A stretch of DNA of 61,491 nucleotides, taken from IMG/VR virus record IMGVR_UViG_3300040770_000247, positions 1-61,491 of that record. One strand, 5' to 3'. Below the pieces are notes generated by a model that worked only from the letters and a program-made list of their open reading frames with translations, had not been told where the DNA came from and did no database searches. The translations under genes were made by a program, and so were the position numbers. The stretch is from a virus (Duplodnaviria > Caudoviricetes). Positions 5,884-15,402 of the stretch are shown in pieces. Numbering within the stretch: position 1 is the first letter of the stretch; each line of letters starts with the position of its first letter.

Positions 5884-6322
5884 CTCGTATCAATGAAGGC
5901 AATACCACTAGATTAACCCATACACCTACATCTTTTAGCATTGCTGGATTAAGAGAAGCTGCTATTGGCAGACCCAATGCTTTGGCGCACCATTGAGAGC
6001 AAAACTGAGAACCCTCTTGTGCCTGATTGCGGTTAAGGATCTGGCTCCCTAGCAGTGGAAGCCAGCCGTAGGTATCCGAATCGGTGGCCTTAAAATAACT
6101 AAGGACATCCGACCGGTAAGCCCAAGGCAAATCAACCAGCTCCCAGTTACCGCTGTCCAAATCAATCTGCTTGCGCCTAACACCCTTGTCCATGATCGAG
6201 CTGCTGTAGCACCAACCGTCAACAACCAGTTCACAGTGACTGTAAATACTCCCAGTCCACCAACGGATCAATGCGTTACCTATCTGCCCCTTACCTTTGT
6301 ATAAAGCAAGTTGGACAGTCAT
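5849..6322 (-). CDS. Permuted papain-like (YiiX/NlpC-P60-type) enzyme
   Basis: YSHCELV ... FCSQWCA: His before Cys, the circularly permuted order. Confidence 0.7.
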   Translation of the reverse strand: MTVQLALYKGKGQIGNALIRWWTGSIYSHCELVVDGWCYSSSIMDKGVRRKQIDLDSGNWELVDLPWAYRSDVLSYFKATDSDTYGWLPLLGSQILNRNQAQEGSQFCSQWCAKALGLPIAASLNPAMLKDVGVWVNLVVLPSLIRGGYGCGSTSTG

Positions 6323-6915
6323 GGGGCACCCGGTAAGTCGTAATTAGTAGCCACGGTACTAGGGTCGCTTGCTACATTGATAGCCGACTCGTAACGCTGC
6401 CGTAAGCCAGTCAGGTAAGCACTGGCGTGCGCAAACTGCGTAGCCTTGGCATAGGTGCGGCTCAGGTACTCAGTGCGTGGGATACCTCGGGCTTGCGCGG
6501 CTATGTTAATCCAAGGTGTAGCAACTGCATTGTCGGCATTCCACGCCACGGCTTCTTCACGCTGGCGTTCCCAGGTTGCAATCTCGCTGGGTGGGTAGCC
6601 TGCTGTGAGTGAGGCAATGGCGTCTTCGTAGACTGCATTGTTAAGACTGAGAGCAACAGTGCGGGCCTGTAGTTGGTTACGGGCAATCGTTTCAGCAGGT
6701 AGCGCGAACACGACCCACTGCTGGGTGCCACCGATAGGCGCAGCCTCGGAAACCATTTCGGTTACCTGGTGATACGCTGGGCGACTTACGGGTGTGTACC
6801 CTTTAAAATCACCAAACGCCGCGGTGCCTTGCGGGACGCTCGCACCGGTGTGTTGCCTTATGGCATCTGCAAACGATACCCCGTAGGCTCCTGTTATTGT
6901 ATTCAAGTACAGCAT
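6319..6915 (-). CDS. Tail fibre assembly/chaperone-like protein
   Basis: YPPSEIATWERQREEA...IAAQARG motif; downstream of fibre genes. Confidence 0.65.
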   Translation of the reverse strand: MLYLNTITGAYGVSFADAIRQHTGASVPQGTAAFGDFKGYTPVSRPAYHQVTEMVSEAAPIGGTQQWVVFALPAETIARNQLQARTVALSLNNAVYEDAIASLTAGYPPSEIATWERQREEAVAWNADNAVATPWINIAAQARGIPRTEYLSRTYAKATQFAHASAYLTGLRQRYESAINVASDPSTVATNYDLPGAP

Positions 6916-6924
6916 GGGCTACTC

Positions 6925-7923
6925 CTATTGGAAAACGGCAACAGTGTTATTTCGGAAGCCTGCTATCACAGCGCCGTTGGCTATTTCGTTATCGGTTTGC
7001 TCAGTAATACCGGCCCAAGTGATGTTGTTGAGCGAGGCGGTAGTTGAGTACGGGATAACACCCCGGCCCGCAGCCATCCCTGTCGCCTCACCTAGCACTT
7101 CATTGAACGCGATAGAGAGGCGCGGCATCCCGCCAATGCTGCCGTGTGAACAGCCAATGATTACGCCCACCGAAGGTGTACGGACAATACCGCGCACAGG
7201 GGTTTCCCCAAACGCACCGTTGGTGCTTTGGGAGGGAGTCGAATTGGTATGCACGAAGGCTGGGTTGGACACAGCCGATTCAACCGTAAACGGTAGTCCG
7301 TTTATATCGGAGGAGAGGATCATCCTGTAACTGCTTCGCACTGCTGTGACTAAGCCATCAATGTAAAGGCCAGTACCAGCCGCGTTATTAACCCGCGATA
7401 CCATTGAGTTCAAGATGCTGATAGTTGAGGTTCCTCCAACCGTTGTAACGGTCATTGGGGAGCCATTTACCCATACCTCGTAAGTCGTACCAATTACCTG
7501 TGCTACGTTTTCGAGGGTATACGTACTGACCTGAGCTATTGGCAAGGTGCCTGAGTAGTTGCTGGTGTCTGAAAACGCTGGAGTGCCTGAGCTAAGATCC
7601 GCAACACGGATAACCACACCTTCGACATAAACTGTGCCGCCTGGTGCGTAGGTAATAACTACGCTGCCTGATGAACCTGTAGGCACGGTGGCGGAGAAAA
7701 TAGCACCCCCTACGTTCGCAGCAGAGACTCCCCCTATGGTTACGGACGACACAACCCCAGTGACAGCCATACAAACAACAATTACCCGACCGGCTTCGGC
7801 TGCACCGAAACTGCAACCCGTAATGGTATGTACGTCCCCTACAGATGCGCCACGAGAGAACGCAGCTACCTGCTGGATTTTACCTCCGGCACCTGCTGCG
7901 CCAAGTAAAAAGTCCTTAATCAT
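6925..7923 (-). CDS. Tail fibre / receptor-binding protein
   Basis: G/S/T/V-rich beta composition within the tail module. Confidence 0.6.
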   Translation of the reverse strand: MIKDFLLGAAGAGGKIQQVAAFSRGASVGDVHTITGCSFGAAEAGRVIVVCMAVTGVVSSVTIGGVSAANVGGAIFSATVPTGSSGSVVITYAPGGTVYVEGVVIRVADLSSGTPAFSDTSNYSGTLPIAQVSTYTLENVAQVIGTTYEVWVNGSPMTVTTVGGTSTISILNSMVSRVNNAAGTGLYIDGLVTAVRSSYRMILSSDINGLPFTVESAVSNPAFVHTNSTPSQSTNGAFGETPVRGIVRTPSVGVIIGCSHGSIGGMPRLSIAFNEVLGEATGMAAGRGVIPYSTTASLNNITWAGITEQTDNEIANGAVIAGFRNNTVAVFQ

Positions 7924-8963: not shown

Positions 8964-10481
8964 TCATATAATCAAAATTCGGTTATCCAATTCGACTGTA
9001 ATAGTTCTCTGTTCCATCAAACTATAAAGGGTACGTTCACCTGGTGCAGGCACCAAATCATTTACTTGGTTTGCACCAATACCAATAGCCACTGCGTTAC
9101 CGTAGCCAATAGAAAAATGGCCACGGATAGAGCGGCTTTGTAGGGTAGACGTCGCAACAGATACAAGAGGTAAAACATCGTACTGTACGGTTGCCTGTAA
9201 AGAAGCAACTGCAGTGGTTGAAGAACTCCCAGTACGAATCCGAGTACCTGCCGCAGTACTCACTGCACGAGCTATCGCAACACCATAACCTACACGGTTA
9301 CGTATGTTTCTATTGTTACTGGCAGAAGCACTACCCCCACTCGGTAGTGGGTATACCAAAACAGTGCGGTATTGCCGACCATTAAGAGCAGCCACCCCAT
9401 AGCCGACATCAGGGTAAACTTTAGTGATGGTTACTTTAGTAGCGATCACTTGAGTCGCTGAACACGTTGCACCTGCAACCGCACCGTATGTTTTGGTATT
9501 AACAGTTACCGCTGAACCCGATCCAATAGCAACGCCTGCAGCACTGCCTTTAGCCTTAGCCAGTAGTTTGGATACGCCTGTAGCAGTCGAAGAGGAGTCT
9601 CCGCTTATTGCTGTTGCAGCAGTTGATGCTGCCAAGCCATCCCCTAACAATACCGCTGTGGCAATACCTGTCCCGCGTACACCAATCTGGAAATAGCCGT
9701 TACCCGAAGCAAGCGCAGTAGCCCAACCAGTTTGAGCCTGGTGAATACCAATAAAGGTGTTTTCAACGGCTGCAGTGCATTCCGCAAAACCAGTCGCAGT
9801 AAAGTACCGGATACCCCCAACTTGTACTGCAGGCTCGCCTGATCCAAAACCTACTGCAGTGCCTACGCCTGCACCACCGTGTTCGTGCACACACACAGCA
9901 GAGGCACTACTCTGTGCGTACCCTGCACCGCCTGCACCTACTTGTTGGGAAGCACTCCCTAAAAGAGATGCTGCAGCTTCTGCAGTACTTCCCCCAACGT
10001 AATAAGTGGTACCGAATCCCCAAGCGTTTGCAAAAGCTGGAGAAGGTGCACCAATCTGCGAAACAGACCCTTCTGCTTCAGCAGAGGCTGTTGCATTAGC
10101 AGCGTGCCCACGTGCTTTGGCGTAACGGAACATCGATCCGTTGAGGGTGGCTTCTGCCATCACCCAACCATAAGCGCTGTACTGCACTTGTGCGTTGAGG
10201 GTGGATGCTGCATCCGCCTTAGCAGATGACGTACCTGAACCCGCATACAGAATCTCAGGTGAGCCTGTAGCACTGGCAGTTGCAGAAGAGAGGGAAACAC
10301 CTGCACTGGTTTGCCTGAAAGCGTTGCTTTCGGCCTGAGCCAGAACTTCAACAATCCCCCCCGAAGGGTGGATCGTATTGAAATACCCTTGAGCTTGGGC
10401 CGAACACAGCGCTATACCTGCCGCAGAAACAAGTCCTACAGCAGACCCGCCGAATACCGTCCGACCAAAGCGCAAGACCAT
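8964..10481 (-). CDS. Ala/Gly/Ser-rich repetitive virion fibre protein
   Basis: 505 aa of low-complexity quasi-repeats inside the tail module. Confidence 0.6.
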   Translation of the reverse strand: MVLRFGRTVFGGSAVGLVSAAGIALCSAQAQGYFNTIHPSGGIVEVLAQAESNAFRQTSAGVSLSSATASATGSPEILYAGSGTSSAKADAASTLNAQVQYSAYGWVMAEATLNGSMFRYAKARGHAANATASAEAEGSVSQIGAPSPAFANAWGFGTTYYVGGSTAEAAASLLGSASQQVGAGGAGYAQSSASAVCVHEHGGAGVGTAVGFGSGEPAVQVGGIRYFTATGFAECTAAVENTFIGIHQAQTGWATALASGNGYFQIGVRGTGIATAVLLGDGLAASTAATAISGDSSSTATGVSKLLAKAKGSAAGVAIGSGSAVTVNTKTYGAVAGATCSATQVIATKVTITKVYPDVGYGVAALNGRQYRTVLVYPLPSGGSASASNNRNIRNRVGYGVAIARAVSTAAGTRIRTGSSSTTAVASLQATVQYDVLPLVSVATSTLQSRSIRGHFSIGYGNAVAIGIGANQVNDLVPAPGERTLYSLMEQRTITVELDNRILII

Positions 10482-10485
10482 AGGA

Positions 10486-10890
10486 TTAACTCAACGTGAT
10501 GATGAGAGAACCTACGGGAAACGACAGTACGTCAGTTGGGTCAAGTGTTTTAGGGTTAAGCATGGCGGCGTGATACAGCAAGTTACCGCTGTTCTGTGCG
10601 TCAAAAATACCCCAATGAGTGACGGTCTTTTGAGCATCCACAATTGCTGGGAAGATCAAGTTACGCGTATTACTGGACGAGCCGTTAGCAGGCACAGTAA
10701 AACCATCAGAAGCAACTGTGGTGTGCGCACGCTGGCGAACATAACCACTATCCACCAGTTCAAGGCCTGTACCAGCATCCGTAGGGTTAGCGGTGAACAG
10801 TGCCACGAACACCGAAGAACCTGTGTAAGTAGAGCCGCGCAGAGTAGCGTTGATTAGTGTACTTTCAAGGTGATCAGAAAAAGCAGACAT
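10486..10890 (-). CDS. Virion fibre-associated structural protein
   Basis: MSAFSDHLE...VALFTANPTDAGTG...THWGIFDA...GNLLY, a widespread phage family. Confidence 0.75.
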   Translation of the reverse strand: MSAFSDHLESTLINATLRGSTYTGSSVFVALFTANPTDAGTGLELVDSGYVRQRAHTTVASDGFTVPANGSSSNTRNLIFPAIVDAQKTVTHWGIFDAQNSGNLLYHAAMLNPKTLDPTDVLSFPVGSLIITLS

Positions 10891-11026
10891 AGTGTCTCCA
10901 AGTAGTAGAGGGAGTTAGAAAGCCCTCTACCTTGAAGACGTACTTCTAGAATATCAGATAGGTAACTCTGATAGTGCCGCCAATCTAACTACACCTACCA
11001 CTTGGGTCAAATTAACATCGTACTTG

Positions 11027-11401
11027 TTACCACTGTTCTGTACTAATATCCCTGAGGGTTACCACCTGCCCTAAGTTCTTCTTGGTTTTTAACAACGAGG
11101 CCCGTGCAAACACTGATTGAATGCGCGCACCCATATTAGCGGTCGCTTCTTCAATCAACGCACTCATAGTGGTCTCGGAAAGTTCGACAGTGGTGTTATC
11201 CGCCATCTTCCACAGTACCCGCTCACCGGGGCCGTTAAGGGAAGCCAGTACTAAACGCATGCGCTGTTCGCTTTGAGCATCAAACTGCAAGATGCCCCTG
11301 GAGGTTTTCACCAACTTCTCTGCACTGTCCCTGGCCGCATTAATATCCTCCACTGAAGCCACTTGTTGGCGCAGCTCGTCGTAACTACCTAACGATGGCA
11401 T
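11027..11401 (-). CDS. DUF4376-like tail-associated protein
   Basis: FDAQSEQRM...WKMADNTTVEL motif; ATG at 11401. Confidence 0.6.
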   Translation of the reverse strand: MPSLGSYDELRQQVASVEDINAARDSAEKLVKTSRGILQFDAQSEQRMRLVLASLNGPGERVLWKMADNTTVELSETTMSALIEEATANMGARIQSVFARASLLKTKKNLGQVVTLRDISTEQW

Positions 11402-11783
11402 TGAGGGACATCTCCTGGTAGGGGAAAAGACTAAAAGAAAAATCAAAGGTGCCTGCTGTTACAGACGACCACTCAATGTAGCCATCGTTTACTACCGCGG
11501 TACCCCCTGGATAACGCACCGTACACCCAATAGGTATTTTACTGATTCGGATTACTTGGCCAGTGGCCACAGTGAGTCCGTTTTTAATCTCCAAAGGAAA
11601 CACAGGTCGCGGCACCACGGACCCTGCTACAAAGTAGAAGAGTTGTCCGTCAATCTTCTCCCCCCAGAGAATTTCCTCTTTGCTGGGGTTCTGTATTTGT
11701 AAGTGCACGGTCTCCTCATCAGGGGCTTCTACGGTCATTAATACTTGGCCTTGCTCTTTTTCATACACCGTTGCAGTAATCAT
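11385..11783 (-). CDS. Tail-associated hypothetical protein
   Basis: Coupled in the tail operon; FPYQE C-terminal motif. Confidence 0.6.
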   Translation of the reverse strand: MITATVYEKEQGQVLMTVEAPDEETVHLQIQNPSKEEILWGEKIDGQLFYFVAGSVVPRPVFPLEIKNGLTVATGQVIRISKIPIGCTVRYPGGTAVVNDGYIEWSSVTAGTFDFSFSLFPYQEMSLNAIVR

Positions 11784-11786
11784 TAC

Positions 11787-12335
11787 TTACCTCTTTCTAA
11801 AACCAACTGTGACCGCACCAATTAAACCTAAGCTTAAGCTGCCTTCCCGTTTTACGGAGGAATCCCCATTTTTACTGGAGGTTCTTGTTATATAGTAAGT
11901 AAAGGTTGAACCCTGTAACACCACTTGGTAATACGATGTTCCACTGACATCACTGTCAATAAAACGAGCCACCTGAAAAAACCCTATGGTGGTGGCGAGT
12001 CCTATACTTGCCCGCTGCAGCAATTGCCCGTTTTTATACAATGTAATGTAACCAGGGAAGTTTGTAGAGGGACCATAGCTTAATACCGACAGGGGAATAG
12101 TAATGTCTGCCACGGACGCGTCCACTTGACCGGGTACTGCAAATGCAGCTGAGGTACTTCCCTGAGGAAAGTTGAACCCTATATAGGCAGATACCGCCCC
12201 GTCCCGCACATTAACGTGAGAAATAGCATTGATGTTCTGGGCAGAAAAAGTACCCGAAAAGGTGCCGTTACCTGCCACCATAATGCCCCGCAACTTGCTC
12301 GTTGAGTCATTGAATTCCGCATACCCCGTGTCCAC
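11787..12335 (-). CDS. Tail-tip module 3 (paralog of TipJ C-terminal extension)
   Basis: Starts YAEFNDS..LRG..GTFSGTFSAQNINAISHVNV. Confidence 0.7.
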   Translation of the reverse strand: MDTGYAEFNDSTSKLRGIMVAGNGTFSGTFSAQNINAISHVNVRDGAVSAYIGFNFPQGSTSAAFAVPGQVDASVADITIPLSVLSYGPSTNFPGYITLYKNGQLLQRASIGLATTIGFFQVARFIDSDVSGTSYYQVVLQGSTFTYYITRTSSKNGDSSVKREGSLSLGLIGAVTVGFRKR

Positions 12336-12336
12336 A

Positions 12337-12783
12337 CTAACCCCCCGTTGCTCTGATGTACCGGCATAGAATCAGACCAGAGCTTGCACCCGATCCTGCT
12401 GAGCGTAGGTGCACCGTGTGCTTCCCTTGACCCAACAACACTAACTCCACAAAAGGCAGTAAAGGTTGATTGGGGGATCTACGGTTTCTATTAATACGCC
12501 AGCCTCCGTCTACAGTCACACCCCCGGCATAAGTACCGTACGCCACAATTTCTACCCACGCTGACGTGTCAGGGATGTCTAACTCAATGGCGACCAGTAC
12601 AGAACCTGCACTTTGGGATGCCCTGGTGTACGTAATAAGACGGTCATACGTGACTTGGTTGTAGTTAATATTAAGGGTGTCTACAGCATTAATAGCCTGC
12701 GCAGTAAGTTTGAATTTAGCTGACCCTGATGCCGCTTTCAGGTGTCCGCGAAACAATGTGTTAGACAGCTCAACAAACGACAT
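12337..12783 (-). CDS. Tail-tip module 2 (paralog of TipJ C-terminal extension)
   Basis: Starts FVELSNTLFRG...LTAQAINAVDTLNI. Confidence 0.7.
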   Translation of the reverse strand: MSFVELSNTLFRGHLKAASGSAKFKLTAQAINAVDTLNINYNQVTYDRLITYTRASQSAGSVLVAIELDIPDTSAWVEIVAYGTYAGGVTVDGGWRINRNRRSPNQPLLPFVELVLLGQGKHTVHLRSAGSGASSGLILCRYIRATGG

Positions 12784-12784
12784 A

Positions 12785-13381
12785 CTATTTCCTGAAGTAA
12801 TCGGTTCTAAACACCGTGTTTACAAATTCAATGTACATATTGGTGGTTCTGTCTTCCACCCTTAAATCCATGGATATGGTGTAAGCACCTGGAGCAGGGG
12901 CACGGTATACAATTTCAGAGTACATATCACCATACAACTTGTAAAAGTCCCCTAAAGGAATCCAATTGGGTGTGGTGTATATAACTAGGCCGTTTATCCT
13001 AAAACGCAATTGAGCAGGAAAGTGCCAGTTCTCGCTGCCTTTTCGATCGTAAACGCTGTATTGGATAGCTGTATTTAACCACCCACCTTGATGATCCTCA
13101 GAAGGTACTAAGACTGTGTGTGAGTGCACAGACCGCCACACAGAGTCGTCGTCAAATCCATTAGACTTAGCACGCGTACTGACTGTGGTTCGTGCTACAG
13201 AGTTACCTGCAATGTTGATGTTGTTAGCCGCGTTAATGGCCTGTGCGGTTAACGTCCCTGAGAACGTCCCATCCAATCCAGACACGTCACCTGCAAAGGT
13301 GGCGTCATTAAACTCCGCCATGAACAACCCAGTTGTTGTACTGCCATCTCCCTGTGGGTAAGCCAGGGCGATGGCGTCTAC
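12785..13381 (-). CDS. Tail-tip module 1, read as the -1 frameshift extension of the upstream tail protein
   Basis: Open -1 frame from the slippery site: VDAIALAYPQGDGSTTTGLFMAEFNDATFAG...LTAQAINAANNINI. Confidence 0.75.
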   Translation of the reverse strand, partial: VDAIALAYPQGDGSTTTGLFMAEFNDATFAGDVSGLDGTFSGTLTAQAINAANNINIAGNSVARTTVSTRAKSNGFDDDSVWRSVHSHTVLVPSEDHQGGWLNTAIQYSVYDRKGSENWHFPAQLRFRINGLVIYTTPNWIPLGDFYKLYGDMYSEIVYRAPAPGAYTISMDLRVEDRTTNMYIEFVNTVFRTDYFRK

Positions 13382-13387
13382 TTTTTT
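13343..13387 (-). promoter_or_regulatory. Programmed -1 ribosomal frameshift signal (A_AAA_AAG plus 3' stimulatory hairpin)
   Basis: ATA AAA AAG TAG, 5-nt spacer, then GCCATC-G-CCCTG-(9 nt)-CAGGG-A-GATGGC. Confidence 0.8.
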
Positions 13388-14544
13388 ATGATCCAGCCAC
13401 GGACACCCGGCACATAGTTATCTGACTTAAGGTCACCCTTGATGTTGGCATTAGTAATCGAAAGATTTTCTACTTCAATGTATTTGGCCTGTAGCTTACC
13501 GTTAGCAAATGCCAGGCTGCCGTCATCTGCACGTAGTTTGTTAAACGTCAGGGAGTTGATTACTGCCCCGTTAATAAAGACTTCATTACCTGCAACAATG
13601 AATGGGCGTATGCCTGTTGTAGTAGAGCGGCCTACGAAGAATGCATCTACATCAAAGCCTGCCTGCACTTCACTTACTGTGCCGTCATCAGAGGCATAGA
13701 TACCAAAGCCACCGATCAAACCATTGACCTGAACCTTGGCCGTCCATTGAGCACTGAGCGTCACAATGCGCCCATCCACTCGCTCAATATCGCTGCTCAT
13801 GGACTGCTCTACCTGGCTTAGATTGCTCCCCAGTTGAGCCTCTGCTTGAGACACCCTCAGTGCACTAGCAGCGTCCACCTCCACAATAACTTGGGACAAG
13901 TCCTGAATAGAGGCTGTGTTTTGCTCAACACTTGCGTACAGGGTGTTTGCTACCCCTACAAAGGCTGAGTCGGCCTCCGCCCGAGCGATGGCTTCTGTTT
14001 GTACCAATGCACGGGTTTCTTCTGAGAAGGCCTGGATCGTGTTAAACGAAGCCCCCAAGGCATCATCATTTAATGCCCGGTCCAGTATCTCTTGAGAGAG
14101 ATCAAAGGCATTAACCTTAATACGGTCAATTTCAGCTTTAAGGGTTTGTGATAGAACCCCTTCATTAATCTTACCGCTGAGTGATTCTATAGTGTCTTCA
14201 ATACTGCTTCGCGCCGTACTACTGGCAGGCCCAATAACATCCCCTACGGTGCCATTAATGGAAACAATCCTGATCCAGTAGTAATACTGAATAGGGGTGG
14301 CTGAGTCGATGCGATCAAAGAAAAAAGAGCCATCGACAATGGCATGTTGCACCATAGTCGTTGGGTCAAACGATGAACTTCTGAATAGTATTACATGCGC
14401 AACGGCATGCGGGTTTACTCCAGGGTACGTCCACGCTACATCAATACCACCAAACCCAGGGCTTGCGTACAAGATACTGTTGTTATCGGGATCACCTGGT
14501 TTGGGACCGCTCCACTGGCCAGTACCGCAAAAATCAATACTCAT
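13378..14544 (-). CDS. Central tail fibre / TipJ-like protein with DUF1983-type C-terminal region
   Basis: Coiled coil, then SAQWTAKVQVNGLIGGFG...FDVDAFFV..PFIV..NEVFINGA...KSDNYVPGVRGWIIKK. Confidence 0.8.
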   Translation of the reverse strand: MSIDFCGTGQWSGPKPGDPDNNSILYASPGFGGIDVAWTYPGVNPHAVAHVILFRSSSFDPTTMVQHAIVDGSFFFDRIDSATPIQYYYWIRIVSINGTVGDVIGPASSTARSSIEDTIESLSGKINEGVLSQTLKAEIDRIKVNAFDLSQEILDRALNDDALGASFNTIQAFSEETRALVQTEAIARAEADSAFVGVANTLYASVEQNTASIQDLSQVIVEVDAASALRVSQAEAQLGSNLSQVEQSMSSDIERVDGRIVTLSAQWTAKVQVNGLIGGFGIYASDDGTVSEVQAGFDVDAFFVGRSTTTGIRPFIVAGNEVFINGAVINSLTFNKLRADDGSLAFANGKLQAKYIEVENLSITNANIKGDLKSDNYVPGVRGWIIKK

Positions 14545-14664
14545 ACACTTCCCCGGTTAAACAAAGTCACGCATTGTACAAGACAGTTAGCGATTGAGTT
14601 CTTAAACTACTCGACCCTCAACCGTAGTGCCACTCTTCCACTCACCTCTATTACAGGAACTTTA

Positions 14665-15402
14665 ATGCACGCTAAATACGAAGACCACTATCTCACCGAT
14701 AGTGCGGTGGCGAACTATGCTCGCCATTCTTTTGCCGACCTGGCGAAGAACTTCACGGAAGAACAAAACAACAACCTGATTCGTTTCCTGGCTCGCGGTA
14801 TGAAGTCGGGTGACTGGGACAGCCTCATCAAGAAGATGGTGGATGTCACTGACTACAACAAAGCCAAAGACCTGGCTAACTACTTGCGCAGTATTCCAGA
14901 ACATTGGGTTCCCTTCGCACACCCACACATTACCTTGCGTATGTCGGCACCGGTGCCCATTGCTCGTCAGGCGTTTAAGCACAAGATTGGTTTCGTGGAA
15001 TCAGAAGAGTCCCGTCGCTATATAACGTCCACCCCTACCTTGTTCATCCCTACGCACTTTCGTGCTGCTGCTGAAGACGTAAAACAAGGCAGTGCAGGTA
15101 TCCATGAAGACACCGAACTATGGCAGGCCGAATACAGGGATAACTGGGCTGCTGCCCTGCACCTGTACAAATCAATGCTAAGAGGGGGTGTCTGCCCTGA
15201 ACAAGCGCGCATGGTCTTACCCCAAGGCACTGAAGTGAACTGGGTATGGACTGGCTCGCTATACGCATTCTCCCAAGCTTATGTCGCCCGCAGCGATGCG
15301 CACGCACAAAAAGAGATCCAAGACCTGTTTGCTGAGGTCGACCAGATCATCCGTCCACTCTTCCCAGTCAGCTGGGCCGCACTCGTTGGGGAGACCAAAT
15401 GA
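14665..15402 (+). CDS. thyX: Flavin-dependent thymidylate synthase
   Basis: HWVPFAH, RQAFKHKIGFVESEESRRY, EQARMVLP and HAQKEI motifs. Confidence 0.92.
   Translation: MHAKYEDHYLTDSAVANYARHSFADLAKNFTEEQNNNLIRFLARGMKSGDWDSLIKKMVDVTDYNKAKDLANYLRSIPEHWVPFAHPHITLRMSAPVPIARQAFKHKIGFVESEESRRYITSTPTLFIPTHFRAAAEDVKQGSAGIHEDTELWQAEYRDNWAAALHLYKSMLRGGVCPEQARMVLPQGTEVNWVWTGSLYAFSQAYVARSDAHAQKEIQDLFAEVDQIIRPLFPVSWAALVGETK

Follow-up and report, generated by a model that had tools for sequence, protein, structure and literature searches.

Genomic context of the tail-fibre locus

The viral contig IMGVR_UViG_3300040770_000247 (Duplodnaviria; Caudoviricetes), a 61.5-kb record of 83% completeness (CheckV), was analysed at its full length of 61,491 nucleotides (nt), hereafter the window. 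Its tail-fibre region contains a gene for a gpJ-like fibre shaft that stops at a putative frameshift signal and is followed by three small tip modules, the first of which lies in the -1 frame relative to the shaft (Table 1). All fibre and module genes are located on the minus strand, and their coordinates and reading frames agree with those given in an earlier sequence-only reading of this DNA. Alongside a portal and a major head protein, the record encodes a virion RNA polymerase of 3708 amino acids (aa; phrog_2206, E 0), hallmarks that identify it as an N4-like podophage. A megablast search of the region against GenBank phages returned no match.

Three profiles recognise the shaft protein: the Pfam family Phage_Tail_Tip (PF09327) scores 41.3 bits at E 1.7e-10, above its curated cut-off of 22, phrog_31 'central tail fiber J' matches at E 3.2e-19, and phrog_496 tail fiber matches at E 3e-69. 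The protein exhibits 45-48% identity to the 'tail fiber protein' of Pseudomonas N4-like phages. The phrog_496 match covers profile positions 244-582 of 769; consequently, about 190 C-terminal profile positions are missing from the shaft. On the opposite strand, the initial 150 nt of the fibre gene (14395-14544) are also covered by a 335-aa open reading frame (ORF; plus strand, 14395-15402), whose true start probably lies further downstream; a divergent intergenic region would then remain between the two.

Table 1. Features of the fibre tip locus in the window
Feature	Position	Strand	Details
Shaft gene, gpJ-like short/central tail-fibre protein	13378..14544	-	388 aa; 0-frame product ends GWIIKK-TAG
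Slippery heptamer A_AAA_AAG	13381..13387	-	0-frame codons ATA AAA AAG; 0-frame stop TAG adjoins (13378-13380)
Predicted frameshift-stimulating hairpin	13343..13375	-	stem of 6 base pairs (bp) + 5 bp, 9-nt loop
-1-frame extension: 21-residue linker (predicted beta-hairpin) and tip module 1	12788..13381	-	stop codon 12785-12787
Tip module 2, free-standing, 148 aa	12340..12783	-	ATG 1 nt past module 1 stop (TAG-T-ATG)
Tip module 3, free-standing, 182 aa	11790..12335	-	GTG 1 nt past module 2 stop (TAG-T-GTG)
132-aa protein, no known family	11385..11783	-	follows module 3 in the window and in L001, L002, L042, L051-L054
DUF4376 protein, about 124 aa from ATG at 11401	11027..11401	-	PF14301, E 2.2e-10

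A conserved -1 frameshift signal at the end of the fibre gene

The last codons of the shaft gene conform to the X_XXY_YYZ heptamer pattern in the 0 frame. The predicted hairpin starts 5 nt downstream of the heptamer and has a minimum free energy of -21.7 kcal/mol (z -5.31); none of 200 shuffled sequences folded equally well. The -1 frame is closed until about 12 codons upstream of the heptamer and open from there into module 1. Judged from these features, the terminus of the fibre gene is a canonical bacterial -1 frameshift signal, composed of A_AAA_AAG, an adjoining stop codon and a predicted hairpin. AAAAAAG as such occurs 15 times in the window, against 10.7 expected, and AAAAAAGTAG occurs once, against 0.09 expected, with at least one copy in 9 of 100 shuffles. 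The heptamer alone is therefore not above chance, and its significance rests on its conservation among relatives.

Among the 120 best listed shaft homologues (722 at E<=0.001), 14 end exactly at GWI[IL]KK; these proteins have 383-392 aa and are 50-95% identical to the window protein. Other shaft clades continue in frame, one ending about 40 residues later (412-434 aa) and another carrying a fused tip (about 480-610 aa). An unbiased DNA search was conducted with a codon-degenerate pattern for NYxxGxxGWI[IL]KK that did not presuppose the slip site. In viral contigs this pattern identified 12 loci, five of which have a stop at this point (stop-type) and seven of which read through. All five stop-type loci carry NTA AAA AAG, and the seven read-through loci, which served as the comparison set of in-frame relatives, have ATT or CTC before AAR AAR and no slippery heptamer (0/7). 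The pattern followed by a stop yielded one new metagenome locus and, in bacterial assemblies, four loci labelled Endozoicomonas, Parendozoicomonas, Kistimonas and Oceanospirillales (a metagenome-assembled genome). An alignment search with module 2 returned 19 loci, of which nine were inspected (L051-L054, L056, L057, L059, L063 and L065) and the rest left out, either as duplicates (L047-L050 and L055) or otherwise (L058, L060, L061, L062 and L064). The module 2 search contributed four further loci with a shaft ending GWC[LI]KK, one of them the cultured 112-kb Pseudomonas phage nickie.

The stop-type set (n=13) comprised N4-like phages, 94-112-kb phages including nickie, and contigs of Endozoicomonadaceae assemblies. 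NTA-AAA-AAG followed by TAG or TAA was present in all 13 of these loci and in none of the seven read-through relatives, and the codon before AAA AAG was NTA in every stop-type locus and in no read-through relative. The 55 nt after the stop have a predicted fold of -18 to -28 kcal/mol in 13/13 stop-type loci, and non-identical hairpins are predicted at the equivalent place in seven other loci (z -2.9 to -7.2). The linker encoded in the -1 frame is open in all 13 loci, has the same length throughout and follows the pattern V-x-x-[IL]...D-G...[FY]-x-A/S-E. Close to the slip site there is a single start-like codon, which reads CTG in the window, L028, L036 and L040 but GTG in some of the loci. TTG and ATG codons are present just upstream of AEFND in the window; an ATG before AEFND is missing in most lineages, and no start codon is conserved. 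Contigs 88-92% alike, obtained from four runs of four studies, span the A-run with no indel there among the 12 matches listed.

The sequence-only reading had claimed that module 1 alone is joined to the shaft, by a -1 frameshift. The conserved heptamer, NTA codon, stop, hairpin and linker, together with the lack of a conserved start, strongly support this, and we consider it very probable from the sequences that a programmed -1 ribosomal frameshift joins the shaft to module 1.

In the RefSeq record of nickie (L066, NC_042091.1 22676-32134), the shaft is annotated as 'central tail fiber J' and gp134-gp130 as hypothetical proteins, with no frameshift annotated; module 1 appears there as a separate hypothetical protein whose GTG start overlaps the slip site. 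Five nickie-related isolates on Pseudomonas syringae also match module 2. Cultured relatives of nickie include Nican01, ZY21, phiK7B1 and hairong.

Three remotely paralogous tip modules in a fixed order

The modules begin where in-frame fibres continue after GWxIxK, as the sequence-only reading had proposed: the relatives P0049, P0015 and P0056 show GW-x-I/L, a D/S/N-G turn and then AEF/TEF-N...RG. All three modules share an N-terminal AEFND/FRG...LTAQAINA segment. In hhalign comparisons, every module pair was aligned with a probability of 98.4-98.6% (E 6e-16 to 5e-15) over 92-138 columns, and the profile alignments between modules extend into the C-terminal beta-sandwich. Thus, the LTAQAINA segment described by that reading is indeed common to the modules, and its statement that they diverge completely beyond this segment does not hold. 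By profile comparison, modules 1-3 are remote paralogues.

Exactly three modules in the same order were found in 12/12 loci with enough downstream DNA, the 652-base contig L043 being too short for a module count. Orthologues of module 2 were recognised in 11 other loci, as were orthologues of module 3, and at each module position both termini bear a conserved signature specific to that position. A maximum-likelihood tree was built from the 33 modules of 11 loci, leaving out L040 (a near-copy of L028) and the truncated contig L043. It grouped the sequences into one cluster per position, with support values of 99/97 for module 1 (M1), 99/98 for module 2 (M2) and 86/76 for module 3 (M3). The triplication therefore predates all these lineages, and the positions never swapped. 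The sequence-only reading had named a conserved slip site together with exactly three modules in relatives as a check on its proposal, and both are observed here (13/13 stop-type loci with the heptamer, 12/12 loci with three modules); it had also regarded a freely varying module number as incompatible with its proposal; the number is instead constant, with three position-specific orthologue groups.

The ratio of nonsynonymous to synonymous substitution rates (dN/dS) between the window and L036 was 0.066 for the shaft, 0.075 for the linker plus module 1, 0.059 for module 2 and 0.12 for module 3, which places every module under purifying selection and indicates that modules 2 and 3 are expressed genes and not relics. 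In Mantel tests on the 11 loci used for the tree, the pairwise divergence matrices of the modules correlated with r 0.84-0.86, a value reached by at most 1 of 2000 permutations; the correlation of module divergence with that of the last 150 shaft residues was lower (r 0.64-0.76).

When the module 2 profile was searched against 1.84 billion representatives, 29 clusters passed E<=1e-10. These proteins measure 110-217 aa, and not one is fused to a fibre; long single-tip fibres gave only weak matches to this profile, at E 1e-7 or worse. Near-length relatives numbered 69 for module 3 (160-219 aa) and 28 for module 1, in searches that covered proteins of similar length and left longer (fused) proteins outside. 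Relatives that lack the slip site encode one fused tip, followed by one chaperone-like protein.

The TAG-T-NTG junctions noted in the sequence-only reading are present in the window and are not conserved, the corresponding junctions in relatives being TGA-C-ATG, ATGA or TAATG overlaps, 1-nt gaps or larger gaps. The TAG-T-NTG junction is ordinary translational coupling and has no special meaning. In several lineages the stop codon of one module overlaps the start codon of the next (ATGA, TAATG), and at some of these overlaps no Shine-Dalgarno sequence is obvious. In L041 and L042, no Shine-Dalgarno sequence was seen before module 2 when the printed sequence was read by eye (it was not scanned), which suggests termination-reinitiation.

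Alignment of the contigs about 90% alike revealed diverged patches of the same length at 11987-12093 and 11840-11914 in module 3 and at 12558-12627 in module 2; no such patch was flagged in module 1 in this alignment. Between L028 (3083-3670) and L040 (3083-3670), module 3 differs by 14 nonsynonymous and no synonymous changes, clustered at residues 123-136 and 170-177, and module 2 by 3 nonsynonymous and 12 synonymous changes. The module 3 pattern looks, from these sequences, like diversifying selection on two loops. A diversity-generating retroelement was rejected as its source, as the 14:0 excess is not adenine-specific. The diverged patches in modules 2 and 3 fit receptor-binding surfaces, whether the modules assemble as heterotrimers or as homotrimers.

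DNA inversion, such as the Gin/Cin or shufflon type of fibre-tip switching, and cassette recombination were likewise rejected. The absence of an invertase and of inverted crossover repeats, reported in the sequence-only reading, was confirmed: no serine invertase (PF00239) was found in the 83%-complete record (12/14 control genomes match; tyrosine recombinases were not searched for), and the interval 10800-14700 contains no meaningful inverted or direct repeats, its inverted repeats being only 14-22 nt long with 77-87% complementarity. No DNA-level direct repeat of at least 14 nt was detected in the shared module segments, and all three modules lie on one strand, with no oppositely oriented cassettes.

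Predicted folds of the modules and of their complex

The AlphaFold2 model of module 1, built from a 7-row alignment, had a mean predicted local distance difference test score (pLDDT) of 69.9; the linker forms a beta-hairpin and the beta-sandwich reaches a pLDDT of 70-90. Residues 22-62, which correspond to the shared segment, were modelled with low confidence, as expected for a strand that needs partners. The best Foldseek match of module 1 was the receptor-binding domain of lambda gpJ (8xcj_F; E 3.9e-7, probability 1.00), followed by trimeric TNF-like lectins and the Sf6 needle knob (E about 1e-4). Module 2 was predicted from 37 rows as a beta-sandwich with a pLDDT of 80.2, exceeding 90 over residues ~50-145.

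A complex of M1 (residues 20-198), M3 and M2, the sole combination modelled, was predicted with ESMFold2 from our own alignments of 35, 46 and 34 rows. All three runs gave an interaction prediction score from aligned errors (ipSAE) of 0.85, and the highest-scoring of three controls gave 0.42; the ipSAE mark is reached by 58/80 solved complexes and 2/110 mismatched pairs, counts that are only a rough guide with our own alignments. At least 89% of contacts agreed between the runs, with a partner pLDDT of at least 80. Module 2 touches both M1 and M3 in this model, by way of the shared segment and the faces of the sandwich. The prediction supports M1-M2-M3 co-assembly and is also compatible with homotrimers, since paralogues can score well through likeness.

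Genes downstream of module 3

The 132-aa protein is always encoded next after module 3 in N4-like and nickie-like loci and is probably the N-terminal half of a tail-fibre assembly chaperone, whose C-terminal half is probably the DUF4376 protein. The two genes overlap, with 17 nt coding in both frames (...NAIVR-stop and MPSLG...). The counterparts from L051 and L052 also contain DUF4376, and in L023 and L063 it forms the C-terminal part of a single protein. Single-tip relatives encode one protein of 141-231 aa at this place, which ends in a DUF4376 or Phage_tail_APC domain, so that loci with three modules seem to have a split chaperone.

Further downstream, a Gp80-like protein (10486-10890, minus strand) matches PF23140, 'Podophage GP4 fiber I protein gp80' (E 3.3e-35), and the next ORF encodes 505 aa rich in Ala, Gly and Ser and belongs to no family (8964-10481, minus strand). 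Both genes are conserved in N4-like relatives, whatever the tip type.

Proposed assembly of the tip and alternative explanations

The three-module unit is best explained as a conserved, mobile 'tip cassette' that terminates a trimeric gpJ-like tail fibre. The best single explanation for its organisation, with roughly an even chance of being correct, is the one inferred in the sequence-only reading, in which one long and two short shaft chains are completed in trans by modules 2 and 3. Without a slip, the ribosome would release a short shaft chain ending GWIIKK, and after a slip it would add the 21-residue linker and module 1. Modules 2 and 3 are encoded by separate, translationally coupled genes, followed by the two chaperone-like genes. 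The trimeric neck that follows GWxIxK in homologues would need three strands; here only one would be supplied in cis, on slipped ribosomes, and the remaining two may be provided by the two free-standing modules, for which no fused form was found among the proteins searched. Each module would contribute one strand of the trimeric neck and one beta-sandwich to a single M1-M2-M3 tip, covalently tethered by module 1 to one shaft chain, the other two shaft chains being short. Such a tip would expose three distinct binding surfaces. If the translation of M2 and M3 is coupled to that of M1, their output would be tied to slipped ribosomes, and a slip rate near one third combined with this coupling would yield a 1:2:1:1 ratio of long chain, short chain, M2 and M3.

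Indirect support for the heterotrimer comes from the unfused state of all module 2 relatives, the stop/start overlaps between modules, the correlated divergence of the modules, the predicted M1-M2-M3 complex and the published precedents of phage DEV and the virophage DSLV2. The model as a whole, namely the frameshift, one long and two short shaft chains and a heterotrimeric M1-M2-M3 tip, draws on sequence and structure predictions, and we regard the arguments for and against it as evenly balanced. A more detailed version is held slightly more tentatively, a little short of an even chance: slipping at about one third would set one long to two short chains, the head would be a tethered, three-faced M1-M2-M3 assembly, and the cassette of slip site, hairpin, modules and split chaperone would move between podophage short fibres and siphophage central fibres.

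Several observations weigh against the proposed assembly. The consensus RNA fold of nine ungapped junctions contained 0 pairs, because the hairpins differ in register and sequence between loci, and no covariation statistic was obtained. The 12 loci represent about eight lineages, so that kinship inflates the tree and Mantel results, and the constant number of three modules could have been inherited from one ancestor. The module sizes are unequal (148 versus about 180 aa), and in L030, the locus on the Parendozoicomonas contig (752-1402, minus strand; also L044), the beta-sandwich of module 2 is interrupted midway by 67 extra residues rich in proline; both features are less expected of a tightly pseudo-symmetric head. 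The match of module 1 to gpJ has a template modelling (TM) score of only 0.37, and Foldseek returned nothing for module 2 at E<=0.001, the best match having E 3.5e-3 and gpJ appearing at rank 50. Finally, when the underlying fold is homotrimeric, its paralogues can be expected to assemble together in a prediction, and near relatives of a genuine partner pass as well.

The main rival is a set of three alternative homotrimeric tips, an arrangement that we consider unlikely. Here the frameshift would be real, long chains would trimerise through M1, short shafts would be capped by M2 or M3 trimers, and the virion or the burst would carry three fibre specificities as a form of host-range bet-hedging. 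The ancestral state, a homotrimeric fibre with one fused tip, is in line with this view, as are the unequal module lengths and the best fold match of module 1, lambda gpJ, in which every chain bears one identical receptor-binding domain (PMC11101478). The fast-diverging patches in modules 2 and 3 and the 14 nonsynonymous versus 0 synonymous changes in module 3 between L028 and L040 would equally suit independent receptor-binding units. However, separate homotrimers leave unexplained both the presence of exactly two free modules in 12/12 loci and the unfused state of all module 2 relatives, and the three modules diverge in step. Moreover, where each tail carries a single J trimer, as in nickie, random mixing of long and short chains would give mostly one or two M1 domains, and a free homotrimer would need a purely non-covalent grip on the blunt GWIIKK ends.

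It is improbable, in our judgement, that modules 2 and 3 are accessory or adaptor subunits, present in single copies beside a module 1 tip, with the short shaft serving a separate role such as plug stabilisation. A precedent is the fibre of phage DEV, which takes up two downstream-encoded proteins in one copy each and stabilises the tail plug (PMC12892993); the Litunavirus-type loci L012-L016 show the same gene order, a fibre gene followed by two small coupled genes. Nevertheless, the paralogy of modules 2 and 3 with module 1 spans beta-sandwich and neck segment alike, a comparison of modules 2 and 3 with the two small L012 proteins shows no homology (hhalign probability 0.1-0.2%), and module 2 is predicted to touch both other modules in the complex.

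That no recoding takes place, the shaft being always short through a homopolymer error or gene decay or because module 1 has its own start, is very improbable. In its favour, the slip site is an error-prone run of six A, module 1 is a gene of its own in RefSeq and in the output of gene callers, and TTG and ATG codons lie just before AEFND in the window. Against it, the six-A run and stop recur in 13 independent loci including isolate genomes and bacterial-assembly contigs (which makes a sequencing error at the A-run unlikely) as well as in contigs from four further studies. In addition, the -1 frame encodes an open linker of constant length whose protein sequence is conserved, the stretch from the slip site to AEFND contains no conserved start codon, and NTA precedes AAA AAG always in stop-type and never in read-through loci.

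Implications

Phage fibres are treated as homotrimers with the same receptor-binding domain on each chain, an assumption on which host-range prediction and engineering rely. If the assembly of one long and two short chains with modules 2 and 3 is correct, recoding would be used for breaking the symmetry of a trimer, a single tail tip could read three surfaces simultaneously, and the small 'hypothetical proteins' that follow a seemingly truncated fibre gene would be real specificity determinants. The well-supported minimum is that N4-like phages and cultured phages of Pseudomonas syringae share a conserved -1 frameshift where a fibre gene ends, which their annotation lacks. This minimum corrects the annotation and provides a new class of phage recoding site, for which isolates exist.

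Comparison with known systems

In E. coli dnaX and in insertion sequence (IS) elements, A_AAA_AAG and a downstream stem-loop direct a programmed -1 frameshift. The fibre gene resembles these systems in its identical heptamer, in a stem-loop located a few nt downstream, and in the two products that one mRNA would yield at a fixed ratio. It differs from dnaX in that the dnaX shift truncates the protein, whereas the shift proposed here would lengthen the fibre by about 200 residues, with the signal placed at a domain boundary. Frameshifts in phage structural genes include those of the lambda tail chaperone G/GT and the T7 capsid protein 10A/10B. As in those cases, a recoded morphogenetic gene would give rise to a minor, C-terminally extended isoform; in contrast to them, the extension here is a putative domain of receptor-binding type with two free paralogues. 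Our full-text literature searches retrieved no paper that reports frameshifting in any tail-fibre or receptor-binding gene, and in the literature searched a frameshift that limits the tip-bearing chains of a trimer, accompanied by exactly two free paralogues, has so far not been described. The matched passages of the Nickievirus paper (PMC8537276) do not mention a frameshift.

In lambda gpJ, the three receptor-binding domains sit together at the tip (PMC11101478; PDB 8xcj/8xck). The shaft shares the PF09327 domain with gpJ, and the model of module 1 best matches its C-terminal receptor-binding region. However, gpJ consists of three identical chains that each carry the domain, with no recoding, whereas here the domain would be present on a fraction of the chains and two further domains would be encoded by separate genes.

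The gpJ-like short fibre of DEV, gp56 (429 aa), has been modelled as a trimer with one gp55 and one gp54, which are encoded downstream of gp56 with overlapping stop and start codons (PMC12892993). In both systems an N4-like phage encodes a gpJ-like fibre of comparable size, two small coupled genes come next, and the tip has been modelled as asymmetric. In contrast, fibres of the DEV type stay in frame beyond the GW motif for about 40 residues and involve no frameshift, and the two DEV partners show no relationship with one another or with modules 2 and 3, as judged with L012 as a stand-in: the profiles of modules 2 and 3 gave an hhalign probability of 0.1-0.2% against the two small ORFs of this Litunavirus-type locus. 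In L012-L016 (~6257-7224), the fibre gene is followed by two coupled ORFs (~99 and ~223 aa) and then by a fibre of ~1080 aa, a gene order that matches the published gp55/gp54/gp53 of DEV.

Three consecutive tail paralogues of the virophage DSLV2, derived from a homotrimeric phage fibre tip, are reported to co-purify as a heterotrimer (PMC12724248). The likeness lies in the three consecutive paralogous genes, found here in 12/12 loci; DSLV2 differs in its T4 gp37 tip fold and in having three free chains, with no shaft and no frameshift tether. The A, B and C chains of complement C1q, encoded by three tandem genes, form a heterotrimeric jelly-roll head. The likeness to C1q is one of principle only, three tandem paralogues giving one pseudo-threefold beta-sandwich head, and no homology is claimed. 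In summary, the parts of the fibre locus, a dnaX-type slip site, a gpJ-like fibre and coupled tip proteins, are known, and their combination is new.

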